A stretch of 64,000 nt of DNA from Maricaulaceae bacterium (GTDB taxonomy: Bacteria > Pseudomonadota > Alphaproteobacteria > Caulobacterales > Maricaulaceae): the NCBI GenBank assembly GCA_039989855.1, contig JBDXGZ010000018.1, positions 35,415 through 99,414 on the forward strand, read 5' to 3'. The notes below the pieces were generated by a model that worked only from the letters and a program-made list of their open reading frames with translations, did no database searches and had not been told where the DNA came from. The translations under genes and the position numbers were made by a program. The number at the start of each line of letters is the position of its first letter. Within the stretch, counting starts at the first letter, position 1. This document shows positions 4,168 through 42,549 of the stretch, one piece after another.

Positions 4168-5961
4168 TTGCTACGCCTATTGACATTAACGGGATTGATA
4201 ATGACAACGAACCCATGCCCCACAGCACGCGGTATCACACTACAACATAGTCCTTTTACTACCCTTACTGAGGGTCTTGACTATGCGGCCAAAGCAGACA
4301 CTGGTTTTAATTTCTTTGACGCGCGCGGGAATCTCAAAACAGTTCTCAGCTATAAAGAAATGCGTGAGCGAGCGATTGACGTCGCGAAAGGCCTTGTCGG
4401 CTTTGCTGACCTTAACGCACGCATTGGTATCGTCGCGACGACCTCGCCAGAATTCGTGATTTTATTTTTCGCCTGCCAATATGCAGGCCTTGTCCCCGCG
4501 CCCCTTCCATTACCTGTAACGCTTGGCGGCCGCAGCAGCTATGAGCGGCAATTACAACGTATGGCGGATACGGCTGATCTTCGTGCTTTATTCACACCGG
4601 CCTCTATGGAGCCGATAATGAGCGCGGCGTTAAATGATCATATCACGCCGATTTTGACTTTTGAAGATGCGTTTGAACTTCCAAAGTCTGGAGAGCTTCG
4701 TGCGCATGGACCAAACGATCTGTGCTACATTCAGTATTCTTCCGGCAGCTCAAGCTCGCCAAAAGGGATTATTGGCAGTCAAAAGAGTGTCACCTCTAAT
4801 TGTTTAGGGATCACCCGCGACGGCCTGCAAGTCAATGAAACCGACCGCGGCACAAGTTGGCTGCCAATGTATCATGATATGGGTTTAATTGGATTTATGG
4901 TTGCACCGATGATGTGTCAGCTCTCAGTTGATTATATGGACCCGCAAGATTTCACACGTCGTCCGATAACGTGGTTGCAACTTATTTCTGATCACAAAGG
5001 CACTTTGTCTTATAGCCCGACCTTTGGGTATGAGCTATGTGTCCGCCGTTGGCGCGAAGACCGTGAGCTTGATCTATCGTCTTGGCGAGCGGCGGGTATT
5101 GGCGGCGATATGGTTCGCCCAGAACCGCTCACAGAATTTTCTGATCTTTTTAGCCCTATGGGCTTTGATACGGGCTGTTTCACCCCAAGCTATGGTTTGG
5201 CTGAAACGACTTTGGCCGCGACCTTTACGCCACTTGGTCAAGGTCTCAAGCAACATACGATTGATATGAAAGTCGCCAATGCGGACAGCATTGCGCAAGC
5301 GGCGAATGATTTGACTCCGCTGGAAGACCAGCGAACCTTCGTGGCCTGCGGGACGGTTCTACCCGACCACACCATCGAAATTCGTGATTTTGGCAATAAT
5401 GTCCTTGAAGGCGAGGGTAAAATTGGCCGTATTTGTCTCCAAGGCCCGAGCGTATCTCCCGGCTATTTCCGCAATAAATCAGCGACTGAAGCCGCCTTTA
5501 GTGAAGCTGGGTGGCTTGATACAGGTGATCTAGGTTATTGGCTTGAGGGTCAGCTTGTCGTAACAGGCCGCTCTAAAGATCTTATTTTATGGCATGGTCG
5601 TAATATTTGGCCACAAGACCTTGAATGGGCCGCGCAAGCTGCAGCCCCCCATCGGTGTGGACGGGCCTGTGCCTTTTCCTCTGGCGGTGTGGGTGACCAA
5701 AAAGAAATTCGGTTGCTGCTCGAATGTAGAACACGCGACCCTAAATTGCTGGATGAAATTCATACCGCCGTATCAGCAGCGATACGCCTTGAAGTCGGGG
5801 TTCCTGTAAAACTTCAGCTTGTTCCGCGTAGCTCTATGATTATTACATCGTCTGGTAAGCTCGCGCGAGCGCGCGTTAAAGAGAAATTCTTAGGCGGTGG
5901 GATTATTGACCTTCAGAACGAAACGCCTCTGACTGTTGTTGAGACAGCTGCGAAGGGCTAA
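4168..5961 (+). CDS. Fatty acyl-AMP ligase / acyl-ACP synthetase (adenylate-forming enzyme)
   Basis: AMP-binding signature YIQYSSGSSSSPKG, later SYGLAETT and TGDLG. AAGGGAGGG Shine-Dalgarno just upstream of TTG 4168 (alternative ATG at 4201). First gene of a synthetase-reductase-ACP-Spt block. Confidence 0.8.
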   Translation: MLRLLTLTGLIMTTNPCPTARGITLQHSPFTTLTEGLDYAAKADTGFNFFDARGNLKTVLSYKEMRERAIDVAKGLVGFADLNARIGIVATTSPEFVILFFACQYAGLVPAPLPLPVTLGGRSSYERQLQRMADTADLRALFTPASMEPIMSAALNDHITPILTFEDAFELPKSGELRAHGPNDLCYIQYSSGSSSSPKGIIGSQKSVTSNCLGITRDGLQVNETDRGTSWLPMYHDMGLIGFMVAPMMCQLSVDYMDPQDFTRRPITWLQLISDHKGTLSYSPTFGYELCVRRWREDRELDLSSWRAAGIGGDMVRPEPLTEFSDLFSPMGFDTGCFTPSYGLAETTLAATFTPLGQGLKQHTIDMKVANADSIAQAANDLTPLEDQRTFVACGTVLPDHTIEIRDFGNNVLEGEGKIGRICLQGPSVSPGYFRNKSATEAAFSEAGWLDTGDLGYWLEGQLVVTGRSKDLILWHGRNIWPQDLEWAAQAAAPHRCGRACAFSSGGVGDQKEIRLLLECRTRDPKLLDEIHTAVSAAIRLEVGVPVKLQLVPRSSMIITSSGKLARARVKEKFLGGGIIDLQNETPLTVVETAAKG

Positions 5962-5979
5962 CGCCCTCGTCTCTGCTTT

Positions 5980-6879
5980 ATGATGCGCCCTTTAACGATT
6001 GCGATGACGGGCGGCACTGGATTTTTAGGCCCTTATCTTATTCAAGAAGCCGCCTCTCGCGGCCATAAGCTTCGCGTGCTTGCGCGCAATCCCGCTAAGC
6101 TATCACCTAATTTGGGTGAAAATATGACTATCCATCAGGGCAGCCTATCTGACATTCCTCCTGATTTCATTTCAGGCGCAGATGTCGTCTTACACATGGC
6201 AGGACTTATTAAAGCCCCGACACGTGAAGCCTTTTTTGAGGTTAACGGCACAGGAACAGGGCAAGTTGCGGCACTTACTCAGGCCCACGCTGTGCCGCGT
6301 TTTGTCTATCTTTCCTCTCAAGCTGCGACTCAACCGCAGCTTTCTGATTATTGCGCGTCCAAACGCGCAGGTGAGATAGAGCTTGCTGATAACTATACAG
6401 GCGAAGCGGTCATCATTCGAGCCCCTGCCGTCTTTGGCCCAGGGGATGAGGCGACGGCTCCCTTCTTTGCTTTTATGAAGCGTGGCCTCTTGCCTGTTCC
6501 AGGTGGGCGTGGGTGGCGCACACGGAAACTGTCTCTTGTTTATGCTCCTGATTTGGCACGGTTTATCATCGACCAAATTGAAAAGGGCTCCATAATCGAT
6601 CAGCCACTGATACCGGCATCCGTCCCAAGCCTTACATGGCAAGACTTTGCAGATACGGCAGGAGACATCATGGGCCGCACAATTAAGGTCGTGCCTTTAC
6701 CTATAACGATCTTAAAAGTGATTGCAGGGATAAATTCGGCCCTGTTACGCCGACTAATTAACCCGCACTTGACGCTAGGCAAACTTTCCGAGTTCCTATA
6801 TGACGACTGGAGTGTGGCTGAGGCGATTGAGTCTCCCACCGCATTAAAAACAGCTTTAAGAGAGACACTTGAAGCTTAA
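5980..6879 (+). CDS. cerR: NAD(P)-dependent epimerase/dehydratase-fold SDR, candidate ceramide reductase
   Basis: N-terminal Rossmann motif MTGGTGFLGPYL; 299 aa. Sits between the acyl-ACP synthetase and ACP/Spt genes, as the ceramide reductase gene does in Caulobacter (recalled synteny, not searched). Confidence 0.6.
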   Translation: MMRPLTIAMTGGTGFLGPYLIQEAASRGHKLRVLARNPAKLSPNLGENMTIHQGSLSDIPPDFISGADVVLHMAGLIKAPTREAFFEVNGTGTGQVAALTQAHAVPRFVYLSSQAATQPQLSDYCASKRAGEIELADNYTGEAVIIRAPAVFGPGDEATAPFFAFMKRGLLPVPGGRGWRTRKLSLVYAPDLARFIIDQIEKGSIIDQPLIPASVPSLTWQDFADTAGDIMGRTIKVVPLPITILKVIAGINSALLRRLINPHLTLGKLSEFLYDDWSVAEAIESPTALKTALRETLEA

Positions 6880-6925
6880 ACCACGAAACCGCCCTCACGC
6901 GGCAAGAATATGAGATATCGACCTT

Positions 6926-7171
6926 ATGGCGAGTAATGACGAAATTTACCAAAAAGTCTGCGAGCTTTTAAAGCCTTATAACCCCGAGAAACGTCCGATC
7001 TTAATGCAAAGCGGTATCGTCAGTGATCTTGAGGTGGACTCTGTAGCCGTATTTGATTTGGTGATGGGCCTCGAGGATCATTATGATATTTCAATCCCTA
7101 TGGAGATGGTCACAGATATCAAAACCGTCGGTGAGCTTGTGAATGCCATTCAGCAGCTCACGTCAAAATAA
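6926..7171 (+). CDS. Acyl carrier protein (dedicated, sphingolipid-type)
   Basis: 81 aa acidic four-helix-sized protein. Phosphopantetheine attachment context LEVDSVAVFDL. 14 nt upstream of the alpha-oxoamine synthase gene. Confidence 0.8.
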   Translation: MASNDEIYQKVCELLKPYNPEKRPILMQSGIVSDLEVDSVAVFDLVMGLEDHYDISIPMEMVTDIKTVGELVNAIQQLTSK

Positions 7172-7185
7172 CGGAAGCTATAATT

Positions 7186-8409
7186 ATGTCTTTGTTCGAT
7201 AAATATGCACCGCTGCAAAAGCGGATCGATGTAATGACGAAAATTGGCCGTGACGCGCTCGGAGTAAAATTTGATGATATCATCGACGCCACGCGTGGCC
7301 GTGTCGGGAACCGCGAAATTTTACTTGCAGGGACAAATAATTACCTTGGTCTGACCTTTGACGAAGATTGCGTTGCAGCCGCAAAAACCGCGATTGATAA
7401 ATACGGCACTGGAACCACGGGTTCACGTATTGCCAATGGAACTTATACTGATCATATTGCCTTAGAAGACGCCCTAGCCGCGCATTTAAACATGCCGAGC
7501 TGTATTGTTTTCTCCACGGGTTATCAGACTAACCTCGCCGCCATTTCGGGCTTGGCCGGGGATAAGGATGTCATCTTTATGGATGCTGATGCTCATGCTT
7601 GTATTATTGACGGCACACGCCTGACGGGGGCATCAACTATTCGCTTCCGCCATAATAATCCCGAAGACTTGGATAAGCGCTTGCGCCGCCAAGGAGAAAT
7701 TGAAGGCGGGAACGCGCTCGTGGTCATCGAAGGCATGTATTCCATGTTTGGTGACATTGCGCCGATTGATGAATTTCTTGATGTCACTCATAAGCACGGC
7801 GGCTATCTCTATATTGATGAAGCCCATAGTTACGGCGTGTTCGGCCCAACGGGTTGCGGTATTGCCGAGGAACAAGGTGTTCTTGACCGCGTTGATTTTA
7901 TCTCAAGCACATTTTCAAAATCTCTCGCATCGATTGGCGGCTTTTGCGCATCGAAACACCCTGAATTTGAAGTCACCCGCAAAGTCATGCGCCCCTATAT
8001 GTTCACCGCCTCACCGACTCCGTCGAATGTGGCTGCAGCGCTCGCAGCCGTGGATAAAATTAAAGCCGGCGGGCATTTGCGCGATAATCTAAAAGTGCGC
8101 GCGCAGCAGCTTCATAAAGGCCTCAGTGATTTGGGTTATGATCTTTGTGCAGACCCCAGCCCTGTGATTGCGGTGCGACGTCCAAATGAGGCGATTTGTG
8201 CGATGGAATGGAACTGGCTGCTTGATAATGGTATTTACGTCAATCTCGCTGTGCCGCCCGGAACACCCGAGAGCTCAAGCTTGCTCCGCATTAGTCTTTC
8301 TGCGGCCCATAGCGAAGCCGAGGTTAACGAAATCATCGCAAAATTCCGCGACCTCAAAGGCATGGAAGCCCAATTAATGAAAGAGCTGATGAGCAAGATT
8401 ACAGGGTAA
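7186..8409 (+). CDS. spt: Serine palmitoyltransferase-like PLP alpha-oxoamine synthase
   Basis: 407 aa AOS fold: GTGTTGSR, HAxIIDG, DEAHSxG, and the PLP-lysine context STFSKSLASIGG. Linked to its own ACP and acyl ligase rather than to bio genes. Confidence 0.7.
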   Translation: MSLFDKYAPLQKRIDVMTKIGRDALGVKFDDIIDATRGRVGNREILLAGTNNYLGLTFDEDCVAAAKTAIDKYGTGTTGSRIANGTYTDHIALEDALAAHLNMPSCIVFSTGYQTNLAAISGLAGDKDVIFMDADAHACIIDGTRLTGASTIRFRHNNPEDLDKRLRRQGEIEGGNALVVIEGMYSMFGDIAPIDEFLDVTHKHGGYLYIDEAHSYGVFGPTGCGIAEEQGVLDRVDFISSTFSKSLASIGGFCASKHPEFEVTRKVMRPYMFTASPTPSNVAAALAAVDKIKAGGHLRDNLKVRAQQLHKGLSDLGYDLCADPSPVIAVRRPNEAICAMEWNWLLDNGIYVNLAVPPGTPESSSLLRISLSAAHSEAEVNEIIAKFRDLKGMEAQLMKELMSKITG

Positions 8410-14492: not shown

Positions 14493-14569
<77 letters not shown>

Positions 14570-29891: not shown

Positions 29892-30707
29892 TTATGACTT
29901 ATCTGCAGGGTCGCTCATTTTTTCGAAATTGGCATCATTTTGCCGAATGGCTGCCTCAAGACGAGCCTCAGCGTCTTGCAGGTTTTTCTTCGGGTCTTGG
30001 TAAAAGGCCGTCAATTTCATGATCTGCAAAAAGGCTTTATTGAGGAACCGTCCCCAGAATTTCATCGGGCGGTCAAAATCAAACAGCAAGATCACCCGCT
30101 CTTCGTCGGTGTCATTCCACACTTCATGCTCATAAGTATCGTCAAAGACAAAGATCTCACCCTCTTTCCATGGGGTGATAGTATCATCAACGCGGATACG
30201 GCACTTCTCGCGGTCTTTCGGGATAATCAAGCCAAGATGCGAACGAAGTATGCCTTTCGTCACGCCCTTATGCGCAGGGATATGATAGCCTGGGGCGAGG
30301 ATAGAAAACATCGCCGTTTGTAAATTCGGGACACTTTCCAAAATATCCGCCGTCTTCGGTGTCAATACCGTGTTTTTCTCAAGCCTCTGTCCAAAGCCGT
30401 AGAGCACAAAGGTCTTCCAATTCTGTTCTGTTGAGAGACGGTATTGATCGGGCGAGATTTCATGGAAGCTCGGGATCGTGTTACGAAATTTTAGCACGTC
30501 CTGCGCCTCATCGCGAATGGTTTCCCAATTATCCGTAAAGATATTTAAGAAATCAAAATGTTCATTGCTGAGCTTAGGCGTATCAGGCACTTGCGATTGA
30601 CGTGTTTGAAAGCTCGCAATTTTACGCACGAGCTTCTTGCCAGTTTTTTTCACAAAAGCCCGGCGAGGATTGTTCAGTTTTTTCGGTTTTTCAACTGCGG
30701 TGGCCAT
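29892..30707 (-). CDS. Aspartyl/asparaginyl beta-hydroxylase-family dioxygenase (LpxO/OlsC-like lipid hydroxylase candidate)
   Basis: HIPAHKGVTKGILRSHLGLIIP and FDDTYEHEVWN motifs of the Fe(II)/2-oxoglutarate Asp/Asn hydroxylase fold. Basic N-terminus. Last gene of the operon. Confidence 0.7.
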   Translation of the reverse strand: MATAVEKPKKLNNPRRAFVKKTGKKLVRKIASFQTRQSQVPDTPKLSNEHFDFLNIFTDNWETIRDEAQDVLKFRNTIPSFHEISPDQYRLSTEQNWKTFVLYGFGQRLEKNTVLTPKTADILESVPNLQTAMFSILAPGYHIPAHKGVTKGILRSHLGLIIPKDREKCRIRVDDTITPWKEGEIFVFDDTYEHEVWNDTDEERVILLFDFDRPMKFWGRFLNKAFLQIMKLTAFYQDPKKNLQDAEARLEAAIRQNDANFEKMSDPADKS

Positions 30708-30722
30708 ATCGTCTACTTTTAA

Positions 30723-32006
30723 TTAGGCTTTGGTCTTAGGGGCTTTACGCGCGCGTTTTTTGGGCGTCTTCTTTTTTAGAATCTTCGGAGCGGCAATTCG
30801 CGCTTCTACCTCGTGCATATAATCTCGCGATATCGGCAAAGCGTTAACATCTTTCGCGAGTTGGATTTGGAAATTCATATGCTTGCCGTGACGGAACGAA
30901 AATTCTGACACAATCAGGTAAAACTCCCACATGCGTGCAAATTTTTCGTCAAACATTTCAATCACAGAATCGCGGTTCGCTTGGAAGCGCTTATCCCACT
31001 CAAGCAAAGTCTCGGCATAATGAAGTCGAAGGATTTCCGTATCCGTCACCCAAAGCCCTGCCTTTTCAATTTCAGCAAAGGTCTCAGATAGAGCCGGCGA
31101 ATAACCGCCGGGGAAAATATATTTTCTAATCCAAGCGCCCGTTGTGCCCGGCCCGCCCTTGCGGCCAATAGAATGAATAAGCGCGCAACCGTCATCGGTT
31201 AAAAGCTCGCGAATCTTGGAGAAATATTCTTGGTAATGAGCAATACCCACATGTTCGAACATGCCGACGGAGACAACACGGTCAAAGGATTCTGTGAGGG
31301 TCCGGTAATCTTGCAGACGCAAATCAACTTTGTCTTCAAGGCCTAGCTCTTTAACCCGCGCTTTACCGAGGGCTAGTTGCTCGTCGGACAAAGTCACACC
31401 TATAACTTTACAGCCAAAGGTCTGCGCCAGATAAATCGCCATGCCGCCCCAACCGCACCCAATATCGAGGACGAGCATACCCTCGCCCGTTTCAGGTGTA
31501 ATATTAAGCTTGGCCGCAATATGAGCCTTCTTAAGGCGTTGCGCCTCTTCTAGGGAAATATCCAACCTCGGCCAATAGGCGCAGCTATATTGCAAATCTT
31601 CATCTAAAAAGAGGCGGTAAAAATCGTTCGACAGATCATAATGATGCTGCACATTTTTACGAGATGCGCTCTTTTTATTACGCTGATGCCAACGGCGAAT
31701 TTTCTTGAGATAGCCTTTAAGCGCCTTTTGTAACGGATGCCCGCGAAGGCCGCCTCGGTTATGGGCGAAGACCTCTAAGAGATTGCGAATACCGTCTTCG
31801 CAAATCAAGGTCCCATCCATATAGGCCTCACCCGCGCGAAGTTCGGGATTTAGAAACAGGCTTTTATAGAGCGCCTTATCGGTAATTCGAATCGTCGCTT
31901 GCGGCTGTCCGCCGGGGCCGTGAACATGCTTATTGCCGTCGACATCAATGATTGTGAGCTGCCCGACTTTTACAAATTGGGCCATCATGGAATTCAGTAA
32001 TTTCAT
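30723..32006 (-). CDS. Cyclopropane-fatty-acyl-phospholipid synthase-family SAM methyltransferase
   Basis: VLDIGCGWGGMAIYLA SAM motif, HYDLSNDFY and SVGMFEHVG, all typical of the CFA/mycolic-acid methyltransferase family. Unusual Lys-rich tail KKKTPKKRARKAPKTKA. Confidence 0.8.
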   Translation of the reverse strand: MKLLNSMMAQFVKVGQLTIIDVDGNKHVHGPGGQPQATIRITDKALYKSLFLNPELRAGEAYMDGTLICEDGIRNLLEVFAHNRGGLRGHPLQKALKGYLKKIRRWHQRNKKSASRKNVQHHYDLSNDFYRLFLDEDLQYSCAYWPRLDISLEEAQRLKKAHIAAKLNITPETGEGMLVLDIGCGWGGMAIYLAQTFGCKVIGVTLSDEQLALGKARVKELGLEDKVDLRLQDYRTLTESFDRVVSVGMFEHVGIAHYQEYFSKIRELLTDDGCALIHSIGRKGGPGTTGAWIRKYIFPGGYSPALSETFAEIEKAGLWVTDTEILRLHYAETLLEWDKRFQANRDSVIEMFDEKFARMWEFYLIVSEFSFRHGKHMNFQIQLAKDVNALPISRDYMHEVEARIAAPKILKKKTPKKRARKAPKTKA

Positions 32007-32025
32007 TCGTACAGGCTTTCTCTAT

Positions 32026-33627
32026 CTATGCGGAGAGCTTTTGCCCTAAATGATCCCCTAAACGCAAGGCCAAAGCCATAATTGTGACCGTGGGATTGGC
32101 CCACCCCCCCGTTGGGAAAACACCACTACTGGCAACATAGAGGTTTGGGCTCTCAAAAAGCTTACAATTGGCGTCAACAACGCCCGTTTGGTCGCTGTCG
32201 CCCATACGAACGCCGCCCATATGGTGATAACCACCGATAGGGTGAGCAGAGATTAGCTTATCCGTTCGCCATGTCACATTTTCGTCAGATAGCCATTTGG
32301 ACGGAATAACCTCTCCCCAACCCAGACGCTTATATTCATCCGCTAAAGTCTCCATCAGAACTCTGACGCTATGACGATCAATATCAAGAAGCTGCCAATC
32401 AAGTTGCGCGCGACGCACACCGAACGCGTCGGTCGCCTCGCCAAGCACAATACGACTATCAGGGTTCGGAGCTTGCTCCGCGCGAACAACCGCAAAGACG
32501 CCGAGTTTCTCGCCCTGCAATTTCATAGCGAGCATGGTCGATTTCGGGTCTGTCTTCTCAAGCCCTTTGATCGCAAGGCCTTTGGCGCGTTTGTAAAGCG
32601 TTCGCCAGAACTTGCTCGACGGTAGGCTATGTTTCAACCCATGAGTCAGGCGGTTGTGCATTTCCATACTCTCTCCGGCACGGCGACGCGCGGCAAAGCT
32701 AATAGACGTGTTGAGAATACCTTCTTTACGTTGAAGGTCTGGAGCGGGACGCATATAGGCGGCGTAGCGCTTACCCTCGACCCGCAGCGCGCGCGGTAGA
32801 ACCGTCAAAGCATGAGCGAGATCGTTTGGAATAATTTCACCGCCGCGCGCATGAGGGTGCTCCATAAAGAAGCGGCCTAAAATATCGTTATCATTACCTA
32901 TACCGTTTGGGCGGCTTGGCACGGCGGCCATTAAAATACGCGCCGATTCAATCGCGCCTGCGGCGACAACAAAGCAGCGGGCGACAACTCGCACTGTTTT
33001 ATCATTTAGAGCTTTAGCCGTTAAACCCGTGACCTCACCTTGTTCAGACACATCAATATCTGTGACCGTGGCGCCAAGTAATATATCGGCCACGTCTAAT
33101 CCATCGCGTGAAAGGTTGGTAAACCGTTCCCCGTTTTCATCAAACACCCATAGGTCTGTGTCGAGTTTCTTAGGATCAAATTCAGGGGCTTCGCGGTCCA
33201 CCACAGGCCAGAGACGGCCTTCTCCAGGACGCTTCAACCCAAGAGACGCAAAAGCTGCGTCGTAATAGGGATCAAGCTCTGACTTTGGAAAGGGCCAGCC
33301 ACTATGAGGGAGATAATCACGCTTTTCAAAATCAATCGGATCAAGCTCCGCACAGCGCCCGCCCCAAATCGCCGCCGTCCCGCCAAACAAGCGCAAGCGA
33401 GAGCTTTCAAGCGGGTAATAGTCTTCGCCGATATTTTCGCCCTGTGCGAGGGTTTGGATATCTTTACGAAAGTCACGCTCTCCGCTCTCAAGAATTAAAG
33501 TCTTGAGATTATAACGAGAAAGTTGTTGCGCCAACGTCTGCCCTGCTACACCGCCGCCGATAATACATATATCAACGTCGAGCTGAGATGGTAGGTCAGA
33601 ATTTAAAAGTGAAGTACGTAGAGCCAC
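32026..33627 (-). CDS. GMC-family FAD-dependent oxidoreductase
   Basis: DICIIGGGVAGQTLA dinucleotide fold. C-terminal HPIGGYHMGG...VVDANCKLFESPNLYVASSGVFPTGG GMC_oxred_C-type motif. GTG start. Confidence 0.8.
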   Translation of the reverse strand: MALRTSLLNSDLPSQLDVDICIIGGGVAGQTLAQQLSRYNLKTLILESGERDFRKDIQTLAQGENIGEDYYPLESSRLRLFGGTAAIWGGRCAELDPIDFEKRDYLPHSGWPFPKSELDPYYDAAFASLGLKRPGEGRLWPVVDREAPEFDPKKLDTDLWVFDENGERFTNLSRDGLDVADILLGATVTDIDVSEQGEVTGLTAKALNDKTVRVVARCFVVAAGAIESARILMAAVPSRPNGIGNDNDILGRFFMEHPHARGGEIIPNDLAHALTVLPRALRVEGKRYAAYMRPAPDLQRKEGILNTSISFAARRRAGESMEMHNRLTHGLKHSLPSSKFWRTLYKRAKGLAIKGLEKTDPKSTMLAMKLQGEKLGVFAVVRAEQAPNPDSRIVLGEATDAFGVRRAQLDWQLLDIDRHSVRVLMETLADEYKRLGWGEVIPSKWLSDENVTWRTDKLISAHPIGGYHHMGGVRMGDSDQTGVVDANCKLFESPNLYVASSGVFPTGGWANPTVTIMALALRLGDHLGQKLSA

Positions 33628-33650: not shown

Positions 33651-34406
33651 TTAAACTACAGAAAAGCGCTTACGCGTTTGTTCTTCTCCACCGAAAATCT
33701 CGCGGCAAACTTCATAATCTTCCGGTGTATCAAGCTCAGCCCACTGGAAGCCCTTAATCAAGGTTGTGTTAATCTCAACACCGCTTTTTGCCAACCCGTG
33801 AATAGCCGATAAATACCAACTTTTGGTTCCATCTTTCGTCCGCATTAACCGTTCTAATTCATCTGTGAAAATCTTAGGTCCATCGCCCATAAAGCGGAGC
33901 ATACCTATCGATTCACCGTTTGTCGCGTCCGCGGACAATGTCTTACCAATCGCCGTTAGCTGACGACCCTCAAGGGTAACCTTCATGTCATCGCCGTCAT
34001 AATAATCTTTTTTATCAATCGTCACAGCAATATCTGATTGCGGTGCATCCAGCACTTTGCGGATAATATTTGGGCTAAAAAGTGTGTCGCCATTTATAAT
34101 GAGGAAGTCTTGTACCATAGATTTACGTACCATCCAGCAAGAGGCTAGATTATCCGCGACTTGGTAGAAGGGATTAAACAATGTCGTAACCTCTGGGCCT
34201 TTTTGACGGCTGGCAAGTTCAGCCTCAACTAAATGCGAATTAAACCCTGTAACAATCGTCGCCGTCTTCACGCCTGCCGCATATAAAGTATCCAGCTGCA
34301 TCCCTAACACCGTCGTGAGACCGATGGGTAGAAGACATTTAGGGAGATCCGTTGTAAGGGGTAATAACCGGGACCCTCGTCCGGCACTTAGAATAATTGC
34401 GTGCAT
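33651..34406 (-). CDS. Sugar/alcohol-phosphate nucleotidyltransferase (LicC / IPCT-like)
   Basis: MHAIILSAGRGSRLLPLTTDLPKCLLPI is the G-x-G-(S/T)-R signature of the NTP_transferase fold. 251 aa. Confidence 0.75.
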   Translation of the reverse strand: MHAIILSAGRGSRLLPLTTDLPKCLLPIGLTTVLGMQLDTLYAAGVKTATIVTGFNSHLVEAELASRQKGPEVTTLFNPFYQVADNLASCWMVRKSMVQDFLIINGDTLFSPNIIRKVLDAPQSDIAVTIDKKDYYDGDDMKVTLEGRQLTAIGKTLSADATNGESIGMLRFMGDGPKIFTDELERLMRTKDGTKSWYLSAIHGLAKSGVEINTTLIKGFQWAELDTPEDYEVCREIFGGEEQTRKRFSVV

Positions 34407-34430
34407 TGTTTAACTCTCTTTTTTACAATA

Positions 34431-35129
34431 TTACCAATGACTTATGCGCCACCCTTCTTCTGACGCATGTTGTGATAGTTTCCTATCAGGATGTATGGCA
34501 ACACATACATTAGCAAGACGAAACATCGCAAGGTCAGAATAGCTATCAGAGTAAAACGTTATATTTGTGATATATTGTTTCAAAACAGGGTTTTCATCTA
34601 TTAAACTATTGAAACAATCTACTTTTTGACCGCCGTAACAATTCGGCGTATTGAAGTTTGATTTCAATATATTACAATCATCGAACCCCATTTCAGTTGA
34701 AATCACATAATCAAACTTAAGTAGCTCTCCAATAGGTTCCGCAATAACATCAACGGCGGCGCTAATCATAACAAGAATATCGCCTTGGTCGCGGTGCATT
34801 TTAACAGCCTCTAAAGCCCCTGGACGCAGTCCATTCGCAAATTCTCTTTGCGCAAATAACTGACCTTTTGAGAAAAGCTTATCCCGAGACGCGCCGGCCA
34901 TAGCCCAACACATCATCTTTCGTTTTACATCCACTCTAGGGCAGAGCCCGCGCTTATATTTCCACTGCGTCCATCCGGCCGACAACAAAAGCGGCAACCA
35001 AATATGAGGGCGAAACTTTACCCAACTCCAAACAAACCGCCCCCATGTCCCGCGCTTGGTCAGTGTGTAGTCGAGGTCAAATACGGCCAACCCTGGTGTT
35101 ACCTCATCGGTGAGACTCGCACTCATCAC
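34431..35129 (-). CDS. HAD-IB family phosphatase
   Basis: FDLDYTLT (DxDxT) motif I and SDSYSDL motif IV, with a cap-sized insertion. 4-nt overlap with the upstream gene. Confidence 0.7.
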   Translation of the reverse strand: MMSASLTDEVTPGLAVFDLDYTLTKRGTWGRFVWSWVKFRPHIWLPLLLSAGWTQWKYKRGLCPRVDVKRKMMCWAMAGASRDKLFSKGQLFAQREFANGLRPGALEAVKMHRDQGDILVMISAAVDVIAEPIGELLKFDYVISTEMGFDDCNILKSNFNTPNCYGGQKVDCFNSLIDENPVLKQYITNITFYSDSYSDLAMFRLANVCVAIHPDRKLSQHASEEGWRISHW

Positions 35130-36235
35130 TTAGAGTCCATCCATGATTGGATTTTTCCACGTCTCAAGAATCCAACACAGACCACAGCAACATTAAAGGC
35201 GATACACACCCATGTCCAAATAGCGACCGTGTAAAAGCCCCAACGGCCTGCTTCGGGCCAGATGCCCATCAACATAATAGCGATCATGAAAATAAACGTA
35301 TTCGGGTTACGGCGCGCAATGATAAACCGCAAAGCCGAATTTATTGGTCGCCACACATGGATATGAAACCCGTGTTGAGCAATAAAGATACCTTCAACAA
35401 TACGGTCAACCACATAGCCGACTAAAATCGCCACAAGCGCAAATGCCATCAGATCCGTCGTGATATTCGGCCAGACAAATACTCCACCGAGCCCGACAAA
35501 CCAGGCCCAATACCAAAAGGGTGGGTGAATGAGATCAATGCCGTGGTCATAGACATTCCCCCATTTAGAGAAAGTCATGGTCGTGCGCGCAAGTTTCCCG
35601 TCCACAGTATCTAAAAAGGTCATGAACCAACCCGTAACAAAGCCTAACGCCCACTGTCCTTGCAAAAAGAAATAAAAGGCCGCCACCGTCATAACTAGGC
35701 TCAGCGTCGTGACCATATTGGGCGTAATGCGTAAATTGGCGCAAAAGCGCGTGGCGTAAAAGGCTGGAACGGGCCAAAAGAATTTAGTTACGAAATCAGT
35801 GATACCCTTATAGGAGCCTGCAAATTGCTGCTTCATAATCACGTCAGGCGACGTGGTACGAACATCAAGCGCATACGGCGCTTCTGTTTTACGCAAGGCT
35901 TTATCATAGGAAGACACTAATTGATCGGGTCGAGCCGTGCGTAAATCCTCAGCCGCAGACGCGGGCCGTCCCAACATGTCTTTATGCCCGCCCGAAACAC
36001 CGATAATGTGACCGTCAACGATCAGCGCAACATTATCACTTTGTGCAAAGGCTTTTAGGAGATTATTGGACAAGACGAAATGTGCATCTAGAAAATGAGA
36101 CACGTCTTGACCATTTTGAGACAACGACAGACCGAATTTTTTATAGGCTCGGGCTTGCCATTCTAGCACCTCAAGCCCCCAGAGCTTCGCCGTGGGCGTC
36201 CCAACAAGATGGATATGACGTACTATGTTTGACAC
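35126..36235 (-). CDS. CDP-alcohol phosphatidyltransferase-family enzyme with ~150-aa soluble N-terminal extension
   Basis: Complete signature DTVDGKLARTTMTFSKWGNVYDHGIDLIHP (D-x2-D-G-x2-A-R-x8-G-x3-D-x3-D) inside a multi-TM C-terminal half. 369 aa, far longer than a PgsA-type enzyme. Confidence 0.8.
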   Translation of the reverse strand: MSNIVRHIHLVGTPTAKLWGLEVLEWQARAYKKFGLSLSQNGQDVSHFLDAHFVLSNNLLKAFAQSDNVALIVDGHIIGVSGGHKDMLGRPASAAEDLRTARPDQLVSSYDKALRKTEAPYALDVRTTSPDVIMKQQFAGSYKGITDFVTKFFWPVPAFYATRFCANLRITPNMVTTLSLVMTVAAFYFFLQGQWALGFVTGWFMTFLDTVDGKLARTTMTFSKWGNVYDHGIDLIHPPFWYWAWFVGLGGVFVWPNITTDLMAFALVAILVGYVVDRIVEGIFIAQHGFHIHVWRPINSALRFIIARRNPNTFIFMIAIMLMGIWPEAGRWGFYTVAIWTWVCIAFNVAVVCVGFLRRGKIQSWMDSK

Positions 36236-36236
36236 T

Positions 36237-37607
36237 TTATTCCTTAAATTTCACACGTTGCTTTAAAGTATGCTTAGCCATAATCGTGACAATAATAACT
36301 GTAAAAAGATTTCCAACGAAAACCGCCCATGCCGCAGACATAGGGCCGACGGCCTTGGCCATTGCAAACAGTGCTACCAAATAGACAATCACTCCTGCGC
36401 CCCTCGCAATAATCGCTCGTTCTGGATGATCGGCTGCAAAAAATATAGGATATAGCGGGGCGGCAGCACCCATAAGCGCTGCGGCGGGAACTAAAATCAT
36501 GGCTATAGGCACAGCAGGTTCAAACCCTTCCCTAGCAATTAAGAGCAAGATATTTTCACCAAACACAAAAAACACGCCTGACATAAAGCAGCCAAACAAA
36601 AATAAGATAGCCGCCGCACGCGTCGTTAATTTCCAAATTTTTTCCACTTTTCCTTCGGTCACCATACGCGCTAATTCTGGATATATTACCTGATCGAGGA
36701 GTTTAAACCCTTCCGAGAGAAGCTTAGCAATTTCTTCAGCGATTTTGTAAATTCCGTTCCAAACAGGGCCAAAGATAGCAAATACAAGTAAATTAGGCAG
36801 ATGCACCGTCGCGGCGCCTAAGGTCGAATCAATGTTGGATTTAATAACAAAACTCCAAAGCCCTTTGCGCTTAGGTTTAAAAAAATTGATCTTGGCTTTA
36901 AAGACTGACTTTAATAAATGTCGCCGTTTTAATTCCCGTAAGGCCATAAATGGTAAGAATATATAGGCCGCTAGAGAGCCACAGAACCACGCGAGTAAAA
37001 AGCCCTCAAAGCCCGCATTTGTTACCACGGCTGTCACCGCCCCGATAAAGCGCACAACTGGCATGACGACCGCTTTAACGGCAAGAACATTAAATTGATC
37101 AAATAAACGGAAAACGCCAATAGACGCACCGCGTTGCCTCAGCAGCACCAATATACAATAAAGCGCCGCGTAATTTCGAACATCTTCTAAAGTAAACTTT
37201 TCACCTAAATTTATTCCATCGCCATAATTTTGCCCCATCCAGACTGAAAAGCTGAACAATGCGATCGCTAAAACATACGCAAAAACCGCAGAAATAGCAT
37301 CCAGCTTAATCCCAAAATTAATCAACTTACTCAGCTTAGAGCTATCTTTATTGTGCAGATCATCAGTTCCGTAACGAATAATCGCTTGCCAAGATTGAAA
37401 GGCCGTCACTTCTGAAAAAAATGACATATAACCATGAAGGAAAACCAGAACGCCAAACTCAGTTGGGGTCAGAAACTTTGTCCCCAAACTGAAGCTACCT
37501 AAGCCGACGATCACCCCTAAAAACTTCGACCCCACCATAAGGCCGCCGTTCTTTGCGATACGTTTTTGCCGAGAGTGTTTAGAATTCACCGATAGATCAG
37601 GGCTCAT
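36237..37607 (-). CDS. MOP/Wzx-type polytopic flippase-like membrane protein
   Basis: 456 aa with ~12-14 hydrophobic helices and the polysaccharide-biosynthesis (Polysacc_synt) type of layout. 1-nt gap and 4-nt overlap with its neighbours. Confidence 0.65.
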   Translation of the reverse strand: MSPDLSVNSKHSRQKRIAKNGGLMVGSKFLGVIVGLGSFSLGTKFLTPTEFGVLVFLHGYMSFFSEVTAFQSWQAIIRYGTDDLHNKDSSKLSKLINFGIKLDAISAVFAYVLAIALFSFSVWMGQNYGDGINLGEKFTLEDVRNYAALYCILVLLRQRGASIGVFRLFDQFNVLAVKAVVMPVVRFIGAVTAVVTNAGFEGFLLAWFCGSLAAYIFLPFMALRELKRRHLLKSVFKAKINFFKPKRKGLWSFVIKSNIDSTLGAATVHLPNLLVFAIFGPVWNGIYKIAEEIAKLLSEGFKLLDQVIYPELARMVTEGKVEKIWKLTTRAAAILFLFGCFMSGVFFVFGENILLLIAREGFEPAVPIAMILVPAAALMGAAAPLYPIFFAADHPERAIIARGAGVIVYLVALFAMAKAVGPMSAAWAVFVGNLFTVIIVTIMAKHTLKQRVKFKE

Positions 37608-38383
37608 GACGTCTCTCGCTTTATTGACCGCTCTGCCTCTTTGATCAGTATCTGCTCAACCAATATACGGTCCGAGGGCTTATCGACATCAATCGCGGCT
37701 TCAGGGACCGACATCAGTACAGGGGCCGCTGTAATGCCGAGAGTTTTGGACGCATAAGCCAAGGCTCCGTCCAAGGTTAACTTACCACGCCAATAGCGCC
37801 AAAATAGCGGCAAGCTAATTTTACGCGCTAATTTTAAAGGCTGCTTTCTAAAATGCTGTGCGTCTTTCCAAAATTCAATCGCGGCAAGGCCTCGCTCATT
37901 AGCAATGTAAAAAAGATTGCATCCCGAAACGGCATGGTCAGCAAAGCGTAAATAGGTCCGCTTTACATGCGGGTATGCCGGGTGGATAATCGTCTCTTCG
38001 GCCAGACCGAGACAAAAATCAGCATCCGTAGCTTGGGATTTTTCGATAAATTCTCTAATCATATCCGCCGTTAAAAGCGGATGGTCGGCGGTGGTCATTA
38101 GCACGGGAAATGACATGCCGTGGCTCAAGGCGGCGAGCGCACTACCAGCAGGGCCGGCCTCAGACGGAGCTTGCGTCAACCGCTTATCAACACTGGCGGG
38201 GCAACCGCTAATATGAAACGGCTCCTTTAGAGCCGCCGCATCCAACGCATCCACAACATAACTCAACATAGGACGCCCCAAAATTGGGACTAACGCTTTT
38301 CGCGGCTCACCTGTATCAGCGCAAAGCGGGTCGACAACACCCTCACGTTGTCCTGCCAATATAAGAACATTAACGGATGTCAC
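37604..38383 (-). CDS. MobA-like (NTP_transf_3) nucleotidyltransferase-family protein
   Basis: VLILAGQREG...ALVPILGRPML N-terminal nucleotide-binding loop and MTTADHPLL. 259 aa. Confidence 0.6.
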   Translation of the reverse strand: MTSVNVLILAGQREGVVDPLCADTGEPRKALVPILGRPMLSYVVDALDAAALKEPFHISGCPASVDKRLTQAPSEAGPAGSALAALSHGMSFPVLMTTADHPLLTADMIREFIEKSQATDADFCLGLAEETIIHPAYPHVKRTYLRFADHAVSGCNLFYIANERGLAAIEFWKDAQHFRKQPLKLARKISLPLFWRYWRGKLTLDGALAYASKTLGITAAPVLMSVPEAAIDVDKPSDRILVEQILIKEAERSIKRETS

Positions 38384-39531
38384 GCGCTCAACACCTTTTC
38401 ATACATGCGGTAGGTCTTATAAAGTTTTGCGTCCGCTTGCTCACATATGCCCCGCATGCCTTTATTATCTTCTAATATCCAAGACAGTTCGCACATATCG
38501 TAGCCTTGGGCCGCCCCCGCTTTGAACACATCTTCGCAAATACGGCACAGAGCGGCAAGACCGCGCTTTGTATTTTGATGCTCTTTCCTCAGCCCCATCA
38601 AAGGGATGCGGGCCGACTTGATTTTCTTACCCTTCAAGCGCGCGATGAGTTTCGCCCAACCAAAGGGCCATAATCGACCATCGAGGTCACGGGTCGCCTC
38701 ATTAATATTGGGGATCATCCAAATGAAGGCCGCTGGCTCCCCGTCAATCATGGCGAGGCGGTAACCTTCTTTAAAGATAATCGGCTTTAGCTCTTTGGCT
38801 GTATGGGCAATTTGTTCATCCGTTAGCGGCACAAAACCCCAATTATCAGACCACGCATCATTAAAAATCGACATCGCTAAATTAACTTCATCTATGAATT
38901 TTGTGGGATCCAACGTGCGAAAGCTAATCCCTGCATCACGCTCAACGATTTTGTTTAGGCGGCGCATAAACGGCCCCGGTGTAAAGCCTTCTGCTAAATC
39001 CGCACGGTAAGCCAAGAGGTCAATCGCTTTTTCAAGGCCTGCGCCTTCAATCATGTCTATATAGTCAGGACGACCGTAAGGCATCATCAACACATTGGGA
39101 TGCTCAAATCCGTCAATCAACAGACCACTTTCCTCATTCACGCTATGATTAGACGGGCCAATCATTTTACGTGCGCCCTTGGCCCGTAGCCAGTCCTCCG
39201 CTCGCTTTAATAAAGCCGCGCCCGTTTCCGCCTGCGCTTCGCAATCAAAATAGCCGAAATGCCCAGCTTCGTCATTATAGCGCTCGCGGTGATGAGGATT
39301 AAGGAAGGCCGCAATACGGCCCACAACCACATCGCCGCGTTTGGCAATAAACAACTGACGCTCAAGATGGGCCGCGTTCGGGTTTTTAATCTGAGAAATT
39401 TGATCAGCGCGCTCAAAGCGGAGCGGCGGATGCCACGTCGCCTGTCCACGGTATAGACCGTAAGGCACATCCAGAAAGGATTTAAGCTGCGCTTTATCCT
39501 GATCATTGATAGGTAAAATATTGACCGACAC
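38380..39531 (-). CDS. Two-lobed GNAT-like N-acyltransferase (candidate bacterial ceramide synthase-type enzyme)
   Basis: 383 aa. C-terminal lobe RIPLMGLRKEHQNTKRGLAALCRICEDV resembles the GNAT acyl-CoA binding segment. GTG start with an AGGAAAAGG RBS. First gene of the operon. Confidence 0.5.
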   Translation of the reverse strand: MSVNILPINDQDKAQLKSFLDVPYGLYRGQATWHPPLRFERADQISQIKNPNAAHLERQLFIAKRGDVVVGRIAAFLNPHHRERYNDEAGHFGYFDCEAQAETGAALLKRAEDWLRAKGARKMIGPSNHSVNEESGLLIDGFEHPNVLMMPYGRPDYIDMIEGAGLEKAIDLLAYRADLAEGFTPGPFMRRLNKIVERDAGISFRTLDPTKFIDEVNLAMSIFNDAWSDNWGFVPLTDEQIAHTAKELKPIIFKEGYRLAMIDGEPAAFIWMIPNINEATRDLDGRLWPFGWAKLIARLKGKKIKSARIPLMGLRKEHQNTKRGLAALCRICEDVFKAGAAQGYDMCELSWILEDNKGMRGICEQADAKLYKTYRMYEKVLSA

Positions 39532-39613: not shown

Positions 39614-40159
39614 TTAAGATTTCTTCTTTTTACTTTTGCCAACTTTTTGGAAGAAGATCTCAATATCCGTGCCCTTTTCTCCCACATTAAAAGCGGCGTC
39701 GTTAAATTTCGGCAACTTCTTCTTATATTCTGGGTTGTTTGACAGGCCGTACGGCTCTTTCGGGGTGAAGTCCCACTTTTGCTTCAACTTCCGGTTTCCG
39801 TCTAAATCGTGATAGCCTGCTACCGCATACATTCCCGCCTTCGGCACATTAATACAGACCACCATCGGGCTATCTTTGGCTTCAACGCGCACACGGTGCA
39901 ACCGGCCTTTTTTATATAAAAACCCATCTTTACTATTATAAAGCTCAAGCTTTAAAATACCTTCCGCGTGGATATTATGCGCTGTGACACGAATTTGAGT
40001 CGTATCCGCTACACATTCATCGGCCGCGTCACGTTCATAAAGCTCTAAAGTTGGATGCACCACAGGCCCATAATCTTCATCAGCTCCCGCTAGAACGGAA
40101 CCGTTCACATACAGTAGAAGTGCGACAAACATTAAGCCTTTGATAGATATGAACTTCAT
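39614..40159 (-). CDS. DUF2141-like secreted protein
   Basis: Signal peptide. GYHDLDGNRKL...PKEPYGLSNNP resembles the DUF2141 signature. Lys-rich tail GKSKKKKS. 82 nt upstream of the operon on the same strand. Confidence 0.6.
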   Translation of the reverse strand: MKFISIKGLMFVALLLYVNGSVLAGADEDYGPVVHPTLELYERDAADECVADTTQIRVTAHNIHAEGILKLELYNSKDGFLYKKGRLHRVRVEAKDSPMVVCINVPKAGMYAVAGYHDLDGNRKLKQKWDFTPKEPYGLSNNPEYKKKLPKFNDAAFNVGEKGTDIEIFFQKVGKSKKKKS

Positions 40160-40258: not shown

Positions 40259-41464
40259 ATGAACCGCCTGAACAGATACTTAATGAAAAACGCTTTAACC
40301 AGCATTGGTGGCCTCATTGTCTTCGCGATTGTGGTTCTTTTGCTTGAACGGCTATTACGAATTTTTCAAGTTATTACTAACTCGACTCAACCCGCATTAG
40401 ATGCTGGATCAATGATCGTCTTTCTCCTCCCGCACTATCTCGGCATTGCCGTTCCAATGGCTTTGCTTTTAGGGATCATCATTACAATTGACCGTTTTAG
40501 TCGATCCAGTGAGCTAACCGCCGCCTACGGCGCAGGCATATCACTGTTCCATATTACTAAACCCTTCATTTTAATTGCCGTAATATTAGCAAGCACCACG
40601 GTATTTATTGAAGGATATATGCAACCCATCGGGCGCTACAATTACCGACAGGTCGAACATAATGTGAAACAACAATCCTTTGCGGCGATTCTCCGTGAAG
40701 GGACATTTACCGAAGTCGGCAACCGCATGTTTTATGCAGGCACCGAAAAACCAGGCAAAGCCATTGGACCTATTTTTATCTATGAACAAGTAAAGGATAA
40801 AACAGACGCAATATCACTTCGCATCACAACCGCCGAAGAAGGTCAGCTCATCATCAGAGAGGAAACAGGGGAGCCCGTCCTACAATTGGCTGAAGGGCAA
40901 GGTTATCGTATTTTAGACAAAACCCGCTTAAGAGGCGACCTATCCTTTGAAAGCAGTTCTGTCGCAGGAACCGCAGAGGTAACACAATTTCGACCACGCG
41001 GTGACGATGAGCGTGAACTGACCTCTCTTGAACTTATAAAAAACCGTGATGGGAGCGTCTATACGACCGTCAGTCCTGATGTAAATAATGCGGCCCTCCA
41101 CCTACGAATTGCACGAGCGACTCTTTTATTAATCATACCCTTTATTGCGGTCCCTTTTGGATTGAACTATGGTCGCAACCCATCATCGACTGGGCTTTTT
41201 GTCGGTGTGGTTATGCTCGTGTCTTGCCAAAAGGCGTTAGAGTTTGGGCAAAGCCTTGGGGCAAAAAACATCTTACCCGCATGGGCCGGCGTTTGGTTTG
41301 TCATTTTAATTGTCGCCATTTTTGCCTTTTACATCTTCACCAAGAGTGCTTTCAAAATGGGGCAGCCTCCCTTGACGTCGATAAATATGGGCATCAAAAA
41401 TATGAAAATGGCAATGTCAGGTCGCATCAAACGACTTCGTCGCGCATGGGTAGAGTTGAAATAA
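40259..41464 (+). CDS. lptF: LPS export ABC transporter permease, YjgP/YjgQ family
   Basis: LNRYLMKNAL start, three plus three TM segments flanking a large periplasmic domain. TAATG junction with its paralogue. Confidence 0.75.
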   Translation: MNRLNRYLMKNALTSIGGLIVFAIVVLLLERLLRIFQVITNSTQPALDAGSMIVFLLPHYLGIAVPMALLLGIIITIDRFSRSSELTAAYGAGISLFHITKPFILIAVILASTTVFIEGYMQPIGRYNYRQVEHNVKQQSFAAILREGTFTEVGNRMFYAGTEKPGKAIGPIFIYEQVKDKTDAISLRITTAEEGQLIIREETGEPVLQLAEGQGYRILDKTRLRGDLSFESSSVAGTAEVTQFRPRGDDERELTSLELIKNRDGSVYTTVSPDVNNAALHLRIARATLLLIIPFIAVPFGLNYGRNPSSTGLFVGVVMLVSCQKALEFGQSLGAKNILPAWAGVWFVILIVAIFAFYIFTKSAFKMGQPPLTSINMGIKNMKMAMSGRIKRLRRAWVELK

Positions 41465-42549
41465 TGTATAAAATTTTCACCTATTTATCTGGAAGCTATA
41501 TCCGTATTTGGCTGACCACCGTTTTTGGTTTCCTTGTACTTATTGGGCTACTGGATTCACTCGCCAACGGCGGAGATATTATCGGCAATGGCGGCCAATT
41601 CACAGATACGTTTAAATATATGGCCTACCGTGCACCTGTCATTTTTGATAGAATTTTTGTCTTCACTCTCGTGGTCGCAATCTTGCTTTTATTTGTCAAA
41701 CTTATCAGGCAGCATGAATTAGTCGCGCTTTTAGGATTTGGCATATCCGCCCCCAAACAGCTTATGCTTCTCACACCTGTTGTTGTCGGCGCAGCACTTG
41801 TCTCTATTACAATCATCAATACAGCCATGCCGCAGTCAGTTCGGGCCCTACAAGCGTGGGGTATCGGCGAATATAAAATTAAAAACATCTCACCCGAAAA
41901 CCCTTTATGGTTCGAAGATAACCGCGAAATCGTCCGCGCCTCTTTACGTTTTGGAATGGATGATCTGGGAAATATCGAAATTTTTTCACGTGAAATTGAC
42001 GGCCGCATAAATAGCTACATAATTGCCAACCGTGCGACATATGATTTTGACGCCCAGCATTGGAAACTAACAGGTGTTAAGCAATTAGATATTGCCAGTG
42101 CCGACGGGCGACCTGTGAATGCCAAATCTGTGAATGAACCACTCGTTTGGAATTCTGCACAAAACCCTGAGTCCATTGCTCGACTTGCAGCCGAACCAAG
42201 AGACCTCGATTTAACGGACATGAAAACATTTAGCGAAAAAGGTAATTCGGGCAGTAAGCCACGCTTTGCTTATGAGTTTTGGTATCTACACCGTTTAACG
42301 CGTCCAATTGCGGCCTTTATACTGCTACTTTGTGCCGTGCCAATCATGCAACGCGTAAGACGACAGGATACGGGCGATAAGGCCCTCATTATCGGTATTA
42401 GTATGGGTTTTATCTTCCTCATTATTGACGGCGCATTAGCCACATTTGCGACAACTGGCGGCATGACCGTGTTGACAGCTATTATATCGCCTCTGATACT
42501 CTTTGGTTTGATAGGAACTTATCTCTGTCTTCAAACGGAAACTCTATAG
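41464..42549 (+). CDS. lptG: LPS export ABC transporter permease, YjgP/YjgQ family
   Basis: ATG 41464 (MYKIFTYLSGSYIRIWL) shares one nucleotide with the lptF stop codon. Same three-plus-three TM layout. The ORF extension back to 41224 was rejected. Confidence 0.75.
   Translation: MYKIFTYLSGSYIRIWLTTVFGFLVLIGLLDSLANGGDIIGNGGQFTDTFKYMAYRAPVIFDRIFVFTLVVAILLLFVKLIRQHELVALLGFGISAPKQLMLLTPVVVGAALVSITIINTAMPQSVRALQAWGIGEYKIKNISPENPLWFEDNREIVRASLRFGMDDLGNIEIFSREIDGRINSYIIANRATYDFDAQHWKLTGVKQLDIASADGRPVNAKSVNEPLVWNSAQNPESIARLAAEPRDLDLTDMKTFSEKGNSGSKPRFAYEFWYLHRLTRPIAAFILLLCAVPIMQRVRRQDTGDKALIIGISMGFIFLIIDGALATFATTGGMTVLTAIISPLILFGLIGTYLCLQTETL

Follow-up and report, generated by a model that had tools for sequence, protein, structure and literature searches.

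In Caulobacter, ceramide phosphoglycerates stabilize the outer membrane and are even able to replace lipid A. The biochemistry of the pathway comes from work in that genus on AasR, AcpR, and Spt (PMC9386255), on the localization and order of the steps (PMC11087976), and on CpgA–C (PMC9393093), and the roles of CpgA–D, the kinase, and the Lpt paralogues are likewise known from Caulobacter (PMC9393093, PMC11324152, PMC13228409). In Caulobacter crescentus, the backbone genes form the run aasR-cerR-acpR-spt (CC_1165-CC_1162, equivalent to CCNA_01223-01220), and the gene for the bacterial ceramide synthase bCerS, cerS (CC_1154, equivalent to CCNA_01212), lies outside it. Published work already covers the operon, its conservation across alpha-, beta-, and gamma-Proteobacteria, and the fact that in some genomes cerS and the genes for the head group are scattered (PMC9386255, PMC11324152, PMC11334938). 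Here, we analyzed a stretch of 64,000 nucleotides from a Maricaulaceae bacterium (GenBank assembly GCA_039989855.1, contig JBDXGZ010000018.1, positions 35,415 to 99,414; hereafter the window), in which an initial annotation had drawn attention to a four-gene block at 4168-8409. We consider it very probable that this block is the aasR-cerR-acpR-spt operon of a Caulobacter-type (Rhodobacteria) ceramide pathway, and that the pathway is complete within the window and has been split by rearrangement. In this genome, the assignment is based on orthology, conserved catalytic residues, co-occurrence, and synteny; the substrates, the order of the steps, and the final lipid are those that would be expected from the Caulobacter experiments. 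With it, a marine lineage of Caulobacterales joins the bacteria for which synthesis of ceramide and of anionic ceramide phosphoglycerates is predicted. The initial annotation had called sphingolipid synthesis uncommon in bacteria, a statement that has to be tempered for this order, where the genes are not rare: among 151 genomes, 53 were Spt-positive and 98 Spt-negative. Related genomes in this sample are not independent, and the counts given below are to be read with that in mind.

Comparison with described sphingolipid loci

As a reference, we used a 19-kb stretch of Caulobacter sp. ErkDOM-YI (L004, from genome G098), whose layout is that of the published 17-gene map CC_1168-CC_1152 (PMC11324152). 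There, spt is preceded by an acyl carrier protein (ACP), a short-chain dehydrogenase/reductase (SDR), a ligase, and a flippase-like gene, and is followed, in order, by a 309-residue gene without a domain match, a DAGK-type kinase, a CDP-alcohol phosphotransferase, a Metallophos protein, a HIT protein, LptF-like and LptG-like genes, a 383-residue protein, and two nucleotidyltransferases. The window block shares with the C. crescentus operon the same four families in the same order and orientation. In both, the ACP gene directly precedes spt, and cerS stands outside the four-gene operon and is followed by a CC_1153-like gene; the same accessory genes (cpgA, cpgB, cpgC, cpgD, lptF2/lptG2, and a flippase-like gene) are also found nearby (PMC11324152, PMC9393093). 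The two arrangements differ in several respects. In the window, 30 kb separate cerS from spt and the relative orientation of the two genes is reversed; in Caulobacter genomes the distance is about 7 kb. Homologues of the Metallophos phosphoesterase (CC_1158) and the HIT protein (CC_1157) were not found in the window, which has a HAD-IB phosphatase in their place. A DUF2141 gene leads the cerS operon here, three candidate lipid-tailoring genes are appended to it, and protein identities to Caulobacter are only 27-48%.

More distant systems share less. In Sphingomonadaceae, aasR is remote from acpR-spt (PMC9386255), unlike here, where the operon includes it. The Bacteroidota (CFB-type) Spt pathway begins with the same reaction, catalyzed by an enzyme of the same alpha-oxoamine synthase (AOS) family, but in its sphingolipid producers spt, cerR, and bcerS are not clustered in the genome (PMC11334938), and Bacteroides thetaiotaomicron has a distinct 3-ketodihydrosphingosine reductase, BT_0972 (PMC11087976).

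The block at 4168-8409 matches the Caulobacter backbone operon gene for gene

Reading the junctions confirmed that the block consists of four co-directional open reading frames (ORFs) of 597, 299, 81, and 407 residues on the plus strand, with spacings of 18, 46, and 14 nt, in agreement with the initial annotation. The families named for them then (an acyl ligase, an SDR, an 81-residue carrier protein with the motif LEVDSV, and a pyridoxal phosphate (PLP)-dependent AOS) agreed with the Pfam and NCBIfam calls, and the proposed likeness to Caulobacter in gene set and order held up against Caulobacter sp. ErkDOM-YI, with identities of 43% for AasR (over 575 residues, to the protein at the CC_1165 position), 32% for CerR (CC_1164 position; E about 5e-28 to 6e-31), 44% for AcpR, and 47% for Spt.

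The aasR product matched PF00501 (1.5e-48) and scored 653.8 bits on the fatty acyl-AMP ligase model NF006624 (cut-off 600); it is 88% identical to its counterpart in G152, a genome of the same genus. The ORF begins with TTG at 4168, but the true start may instead be the ATG at 4201, since the profile match begins at residue 18 and the relatives are 569-596 residues long. Acylation of AcpR and not of CoA or AcpP is a property shown for the Caulobacter and Escherichia coli BL21 proteins only (PMC9386255).

AcpR matched PF00550 (4e-8), with Ser38 in LEVDSV as the phosphopantetheine-attachment serine. On the housekeeping ACP model TIGR00517 (cut-off 70.45), it reached 48-49 bits, whereas a separate AcpP encoded on contig C6 of the same genome scored 109 bits. 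By these scores, AcpR is a second, divergent ACP distinct from AcpP. A specialized AcpR precedes spt in alpha-, beta-, and gamma-Proteobacteria, and directly so in other Rhodobacteria (PMC9386255), and the position of acpR 14 nt upstream of spt fits that rule.

CerR matched PF01370 (Epimerase, 8e-17) and carries the NAD(P)-binding motif GxxGxxG (GGTGFLG, at residue 11) and the catalytic YxxxK (YCASK, at residue 124). We saw no evident signal peptide, and the Rossmann motif begins already at residue 11; Caulobacter CerR is nevertheless reported to be periplasmic, by an unknown route (PMC11087976). The comparison with Caulobacter CerR that the initial annotation had proposed supports the assignment through gene position as well: strong homologues (at least 94 bits) occurred in 48 of the 53 Spt-positive genomes, beside spt in all but three, and other SDR paralogues in the order-wide search scored at most 77 bits, leaving a clear gap between 94 and 77. 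A strong CerR homologue was not found in the remaining five Spt-positive genomes, all of which have cerS (G110, G080, G090, G135, and G043). In G110 (L005, contig C4, 4591-7895), the run is aasR-acpR-spt, and just 66 nt occupy the expected place of cerR. Either these five genomes use another reductase or the 3-keto lipid is their end product.

The block is preceded by a gene for NAD-glutamate dehydrogenase (GDH) and followed by genes for a ChrR-type cupin, a glyoxalase, and a CmcJ-family oxidoreductase. No Rfam RNA element was found within or around the operon; promoter-like matches around it were slightly above shuffled background, and terminator-like matches were at background.

The 407-residue enzyme is predicted to be a serine palmitoyltransferase

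For the AOS, the initial annotation had called for a profile comparison and a phylogeny. On NCBI's curated Spt equivalog NF047599 (cut-off 500), the 407-residue enzyme, which has the class I/II aminotransferase fold, scored 540.1 bits, and this is also the model on which a Caulobacter Spt scores best (677.6 bits). All other models remained below their cut-offs: BioF (290.5 bits), Kbl (281 bits), HemA (227 bits), and the CqsA type (189 bits), as did the CFB-type Spt model (316 bits against a cut-off of 640). The best match in the PDB was the serine palmitoyltransferase (SPT) of Sphingomonas wittichii (2x8u; 8e-110, 371 bits), followed by that of S. paucimobilis (2jg2; 1e-101); Kbl (1e-55) and cysteate-C-fatty acyltransferase (4e-47, 164 bits) were weaker.

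With the Sphingomonas enzymes, it has in common the PLP lysine motif TFSKS, the motif DEAHS, and a C-terminal Arg. Residues H137, D211, H214, K245 (the PLP lysine), and R368 were invariant across five Spt orthologues and align with H159, D231, H234, K265, and R390 of S. paucimobilis SPT. In a maximum-likelihood tree of nine sequences, a set that did not include CqsA, the window enzyme grouped with the Spts of Caulobacter sp., Litorimonas, and two other genomes in a 100/100 clade, and E. coli Kbl and BioF as well as the genome's own Kbl and HemA fell apart from it. The genome has three AOS genes, encoding this Spt, a Kbl (TIGR01822, 664 bits), and a HemA (TIGR01821, 626 bits). No BioF-type enzyme turned up in the genome in a search with the Spt profile, and the organism may lack the classical biotin pathway.

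Fold and catalytic residues are common to all AOSs, and substrate choice is not certain from sequence, so we considered whether this could be another member of the family (for example one that uses cysteate to make sulfonolipids, one that takes glycine or alanine, or one resembling CqsA) producing a different amino-lipid. One residue appears to point that way: residue 356 is Val (AVPPGTP) at the position of Arg378 in S. paucimobilis SPT (ARPPATP). At the same position, the Spt orthologue of Caulobacter sp. has Leu and that of another relative has Ile. Because the Caulobacter sp. enzyme has Leu there, Arg378 would not be required in the AcpR-dependent Spt group, and Val at this position is ruled out as the mark of a non-Spt enzyme; the window enzyme clusters with precisely this Arg-less Caulobacter Spt. 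The margins on the Spt equivalog (540 bits, against at most 290 on BioF, Kbl, HemA, and CqsA) and in the PDB (371 bits for SPT, against 164 for the cysteate enzyme) also argue for Spt, as do the perfect co-occurrence with a bCerS orthologue and the position of the gene beside a ceramide kinase and Cpg genes in relatives. We regard a different AOS specificity as highly improbable, and the profile, residue, and tree data together predict that the 407-residue enzyme is Spt rather than BioF or Kbl.

A predicted ceramide synthase lies 30 kb from spt

Domain calls with Pfam and NCBIfam showed no N-acyltransferase within or adjoining the block, as the initial annotation had observed, and the gene it offered as a candidate, at 38380-39531, proved to be a convincing one. 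Its 383-residue product was 42% identical (2e-95, over 368 of 383 residues) to the 383-residue ErkDOM-YI protein at the CC_1154 position, which is the eighth gene after spt and lies between lptG2 and the CC_1153-like gene, as in the published map. The gene is single-copy in this genome. Strong homologues (E at most 4e-74) were present in 53/53 Spt-positive genomes and in 0/98 Spt-negative ones, six of which had only weak paralogues (1.6e-30 or weaker).

Pfam and NCBIfam gave no match or model for the 383-residue protein, and a PDB search with its sequence returned nothing significant, although several homologues carry PF00583. An AlphaFold model built on 45 homologues (predicted local distance difference test score 85.9) matched tandem-GNAT structures (2wpw, 3e-14; 5kf1, 1e-12, with template-modeling scores of 0.61-0.72), and also MshD. 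With no profile to score against, the bCerS assignment rests on positional orthology, co-occurrence, and fold, which together indicate that the gene at 38380-39531 encodes bCerS, the orthologue of CC_1154/CCNA_01212.

The absence of a curated bCerS profile, and hence of a score at a family threshold, together with a location 30 kb from spt in another transcription unit, would also suit a scenario in which this protein is not a ceramide synthase, N-acylation is carried out otherwise or not at all, and the backbone operon is an uncoupled remnant making free long-chain bases. Several observations make this very unlikely: the full-length identity to the CC_1154-position protein and the single copy, the strict co-occurrence with Spt, the tandem GNAT N-acyltransferase fold, and the intactness of all ORFs in both blocks. 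The downstream ceramide kinase and Cpg genes would, moreover, have no substrate. Distance is no obstacle to a bCerS role, since co-localization of the pathway genes is not required (PMC11334938).

Some of the observations reported so far count against our reading of the operon and its pathway: the modest identity of CerR to its Caulobacter counterpart, the lack of any Pfam or NCBIfam match for the predicted bCerS, the Val at the Arg378 position of Spt (discounted above), and the small size of the AOS tree, from which CqsA was absent.

Public annotation of both key enzymes was misleading where we saw it (at L004, L005, and L014): members of the bCerS cluster are named "dATP pyrophosphohydrolase," "GNAT superfamily N-acetyltransferase," or hypothetical, and the JGI name for the Spt orthologues of this family is "8-amino-7-oxononanoate synthase."

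Proposed route and the order of acylation and reduction

By analogy with Caulobacter, AasR would adenylate a free fatty acid and load it onto AcpR, and Spt would condense acyl-AcpR with L-serine to give 3-ketodihydrosphingosine. The tandem-GNAT bCerS would then N-acylate this intermediate to an oxidized ceramide, whose 3-keto group CerR would reduce to yield dihydroceramide. CpgB is expected to phosphorylate the ceramide, the CpgC, CpgA, and CpgD homologues to convert it to ceramide (di)phosphoglycerate, and LptF2/LptG2 with the flippase-like protein to export the lipid.

Acylation before reduction is the better-supported of the two models published for Caulobacter. The other, with the same genes and product, follows the eukaryote-like order, in which CerR first makes sphinganine and bCerS then N-acylates it; it originates with one of the two research groups whose work defined these genes (as cited in PMC11087976 and PMC9386255). 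The gene layout here would suit it, as cerR is within the backbone operon with spt and cerS is elsewhere, an arrangement appropriate to long-chain-base reduction. Deletion of cerR in Caulobacter, however, leads to accumulation of oxidized ceramide, and the five relatives with spt and cerS and without a strong CerR homologue suggest that reduction is the step more easily dispensed with and the later of the two. The sequence alone does not discriminate between the two orders, and on the balance of these observations we think reduction before acylation unlikely and retain acylation followed by reduction.

Head-group and export genes surround the predicted cerS

The predicted cerS belongs to a tightly packed run of minus-strand genes extending from 40159 down to 29892, in the order DUF2141, cerS, CC_1153-like, CC_1166-like, cpgA-like, HAD-IB, cpgD-like, GMC, cyclopropane-fatty-acid (CFA)-synthase-family, and LpxO/OlsC-like (Table 1). 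Gene boundaries around 33651-38383 are 4-nt overlaps or spacings of 1-24 nt. A divergent plus-strand operon at 40259-44462 contains lptF2, lptG2, the cpgB-like kinase, and the cpgC-like gene. From the Caulobacter locus, lptF2 and lptG2 would be sphingolipid-dedicated paralogues of LptF and LptG. A PDB search for a named anchor to Caulobacter CpgB or CpgD gave no match. With these assignments, the window appears to encode the full set of genes known for ceramide, for its anionic head group, and for export.

Table 1 Coordinates in the window of the predicted backbone, head-group, export, and candidate tailoring genes
Feature	Position	Strand	Remarks
aasR, specialized acyl-ACP synthetase, fatty acyl-AMP ligase type	4168..5961	+	597 residues, TTG start
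cerR, extended-SDR ceramide reductase	5980..6879	+	299 residues
acpR, specialized acyl carrier protein	6926..7171	+	81 residues, LEVDSV
spt, predicted serine palmitoyltransferase, PLP-dependent alpha-oxoamine synthase	7186..8409	+	407 residues
LpxO/OlsC-type Fe(II)/2-oxoglutarate hydroxylase	29892..30707	-	end of cerS/cpg operon
Cyclopropane-fatty-acid-synthase-family methyltransferase	30723..32006	-	end of cerS/cpg operon
GMC flavoprotein oxidoreductase	32026..33627	-	end of cerS/cpg operon
cpgD-like cytidylyltransferase	33651..34406	-	48% identity to CC_1152-position protein
HAD-IB phosphatase	34431..35129	-	Pfam/NCBIfam
cpgA-like CDP-alcohol phosphotransferase	35126..36235	-	369 residues; 42% identity to CC_1159-position protein
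CC_1166-like putative flippase	36237..37607	-	456 residues; 29% identity to CC_1166-position protein
CC_1153-like nucleotidyltransferase	37604..38383	-	39% identity to Caulobacter sp. CC_1153-position protein
bcerS (cerS), predicted bacterial ceramide synthase	38380..39531	-	383 residues, 30 kb from spt
DUF2141 gene, first of cerS operon	39614..40159	-	PF09912, 4e-26
lptF2	40259..41464	+	PF03739, 7e-58; homologue at CC_1156 position
lptG2	longest ORF 41224..42549, true start probably near 41450	+	PF03739, 2e-43; homologue at CC_1155 position
cpgB-like ceramide kinase	42562..43512	+	DAGK_cat; 27% identity to CC_1160-position protein
cpgC-like gene	43509..44462	+	31.5% identity to CC_1161-position protein

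The DUF2141 gene is kept directly upstream of cerS in L005, L006, L009, and G152, which represent at least two families. We did not find it in the Caulobacter locus, and it may belong to the sphingolipid system in certain lineages only. The flippase-like and cpgA-like genes, separate here (35126-37607), are fused into a single 834-residue ORF in G110 (L005, 14776-17280).

The separation of cerS from spt points to a species-level rearrangement

Among the 53 Spt-positive genomes, cerS was within 8 kb of spt in 46 and on a different contig in four. In the other three, the two genes shared a contig at a greater distance: 30 kb in this genome, and about 580 and 670 kb in the other two. A backbone operon apart from cerS has been described in other Proteobacteria (PMC11324152, PMC9386255, PMC11334938), and cerS and the head-group genes can sit away from the spt operon (PMC11324152). 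The published scattered genomes have the same orthologue set in one to ten genomic regions (PMC11324152); the present genome differs in belonging to another family (with Litorimonas and Fretibacter) and in that its split is species-specific.

Close relatives show what the contiguous arrangement looks like. Litorimonas taeanensis (G075) and G110 both have cpgC immediately beside spt, with the two genes convergent. In the same-genus genome G152, the locus is contiguous, with cerS less than 8 kb away from spt, and runs [W14625 ... cerS ... cpgC] - 1.35 kb - [spt acpR cerR aasR] - GDH, where W14625 denotes the homologue of the window ORF starting at 14625. The GDH-aasR junction is common to G152 and the window, and the 30-kb window block from 14625 to cpgC is collinear with G152, but it is turned around with respect to the spt operon and is joined to it by its other end. 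Since G152 keeps the contiguous form, the split would be a derived, species-specific rearrangement.

An inversion spanning about 8.4-44.5 kb, with a breakpoint between spt and cpgC, would account for how the block is oriented and for the retained GDH-aasR junction. One simple inversion is nevertheless rejected as the cause of the split, because of a mismatch at the outer flanks: the gene left of the block in G152 is found on contig C17 of the present genome, and the gene right of cpgC in the window is found on contig C5 of G152. More than one rearrangement event is therefore needed. No inverted repeats were found at the rearrangement junctions. Gene order thus indicates that the separation of cerS is a species-level rearrangement of an ancestrally contiguous locus and not a different pathway architecture. 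It provides a natural example of a backbone operon that has moved 30 kb from cerS and been flipped relative to it with every gene intact, and it warns that a pathway should not be judged incomplete on its local gene context only.

The interval between the spt operon and 14625 comprises about 6 kb of further genes, together with an AT-rich island and a tRNA-Met gene. The AT-rich segment (10767-14569) has a GC content of 0.37-0.41, against about 0.48, encodes a LuxR-type regulator and a 748-residue sensor kinase, and ends at tRNA-Met (14493-14569). Collinearity with G152 starts only at 14625, and no tRNA was found at that place in G152. The segment is probably an island near one of the rearrangement junctions.

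Candidate tailoring genes are appended to the cerS operon

What we find most interesting beyond 4168-8409 is the trio of linked genes at 29892-33627, encoding the GMC oxidoreductase, the methyltransferase, and the hydroxylase, which follow one another with gaps of 15-23 nt and are candidate sphingolipid-modifying enzymes. We raise tentatively, as a possibility that the odds do not favor, that the sphingolipid of this lineage carries acyl-chain or head-group modifications not described for Caulobacter. Should the sphingolipid be their substrate, the hydroxylase would stand in for the DesA-type ceramide hydroxylase of Caulobacter (CC_0202) without being homologous to it.

Given the relatedness of the genomes, the distribution of these genes is a lead and not a result. 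Close orthologues of the hydroxylase (at least 64% identity) occurred in 17/53 Spt-positive and 0/98 Spt-negative genomes, mostly 3-6 kb from cerS. Those of the methyltransferase stood near cerS in several genera, and those with at least 65% identity were next to the hydroxylase in eight genomes. For the GMC oxidoreductase, close orthologues were about 5 kb away from cerS in three genomes, all belonging to a second family.

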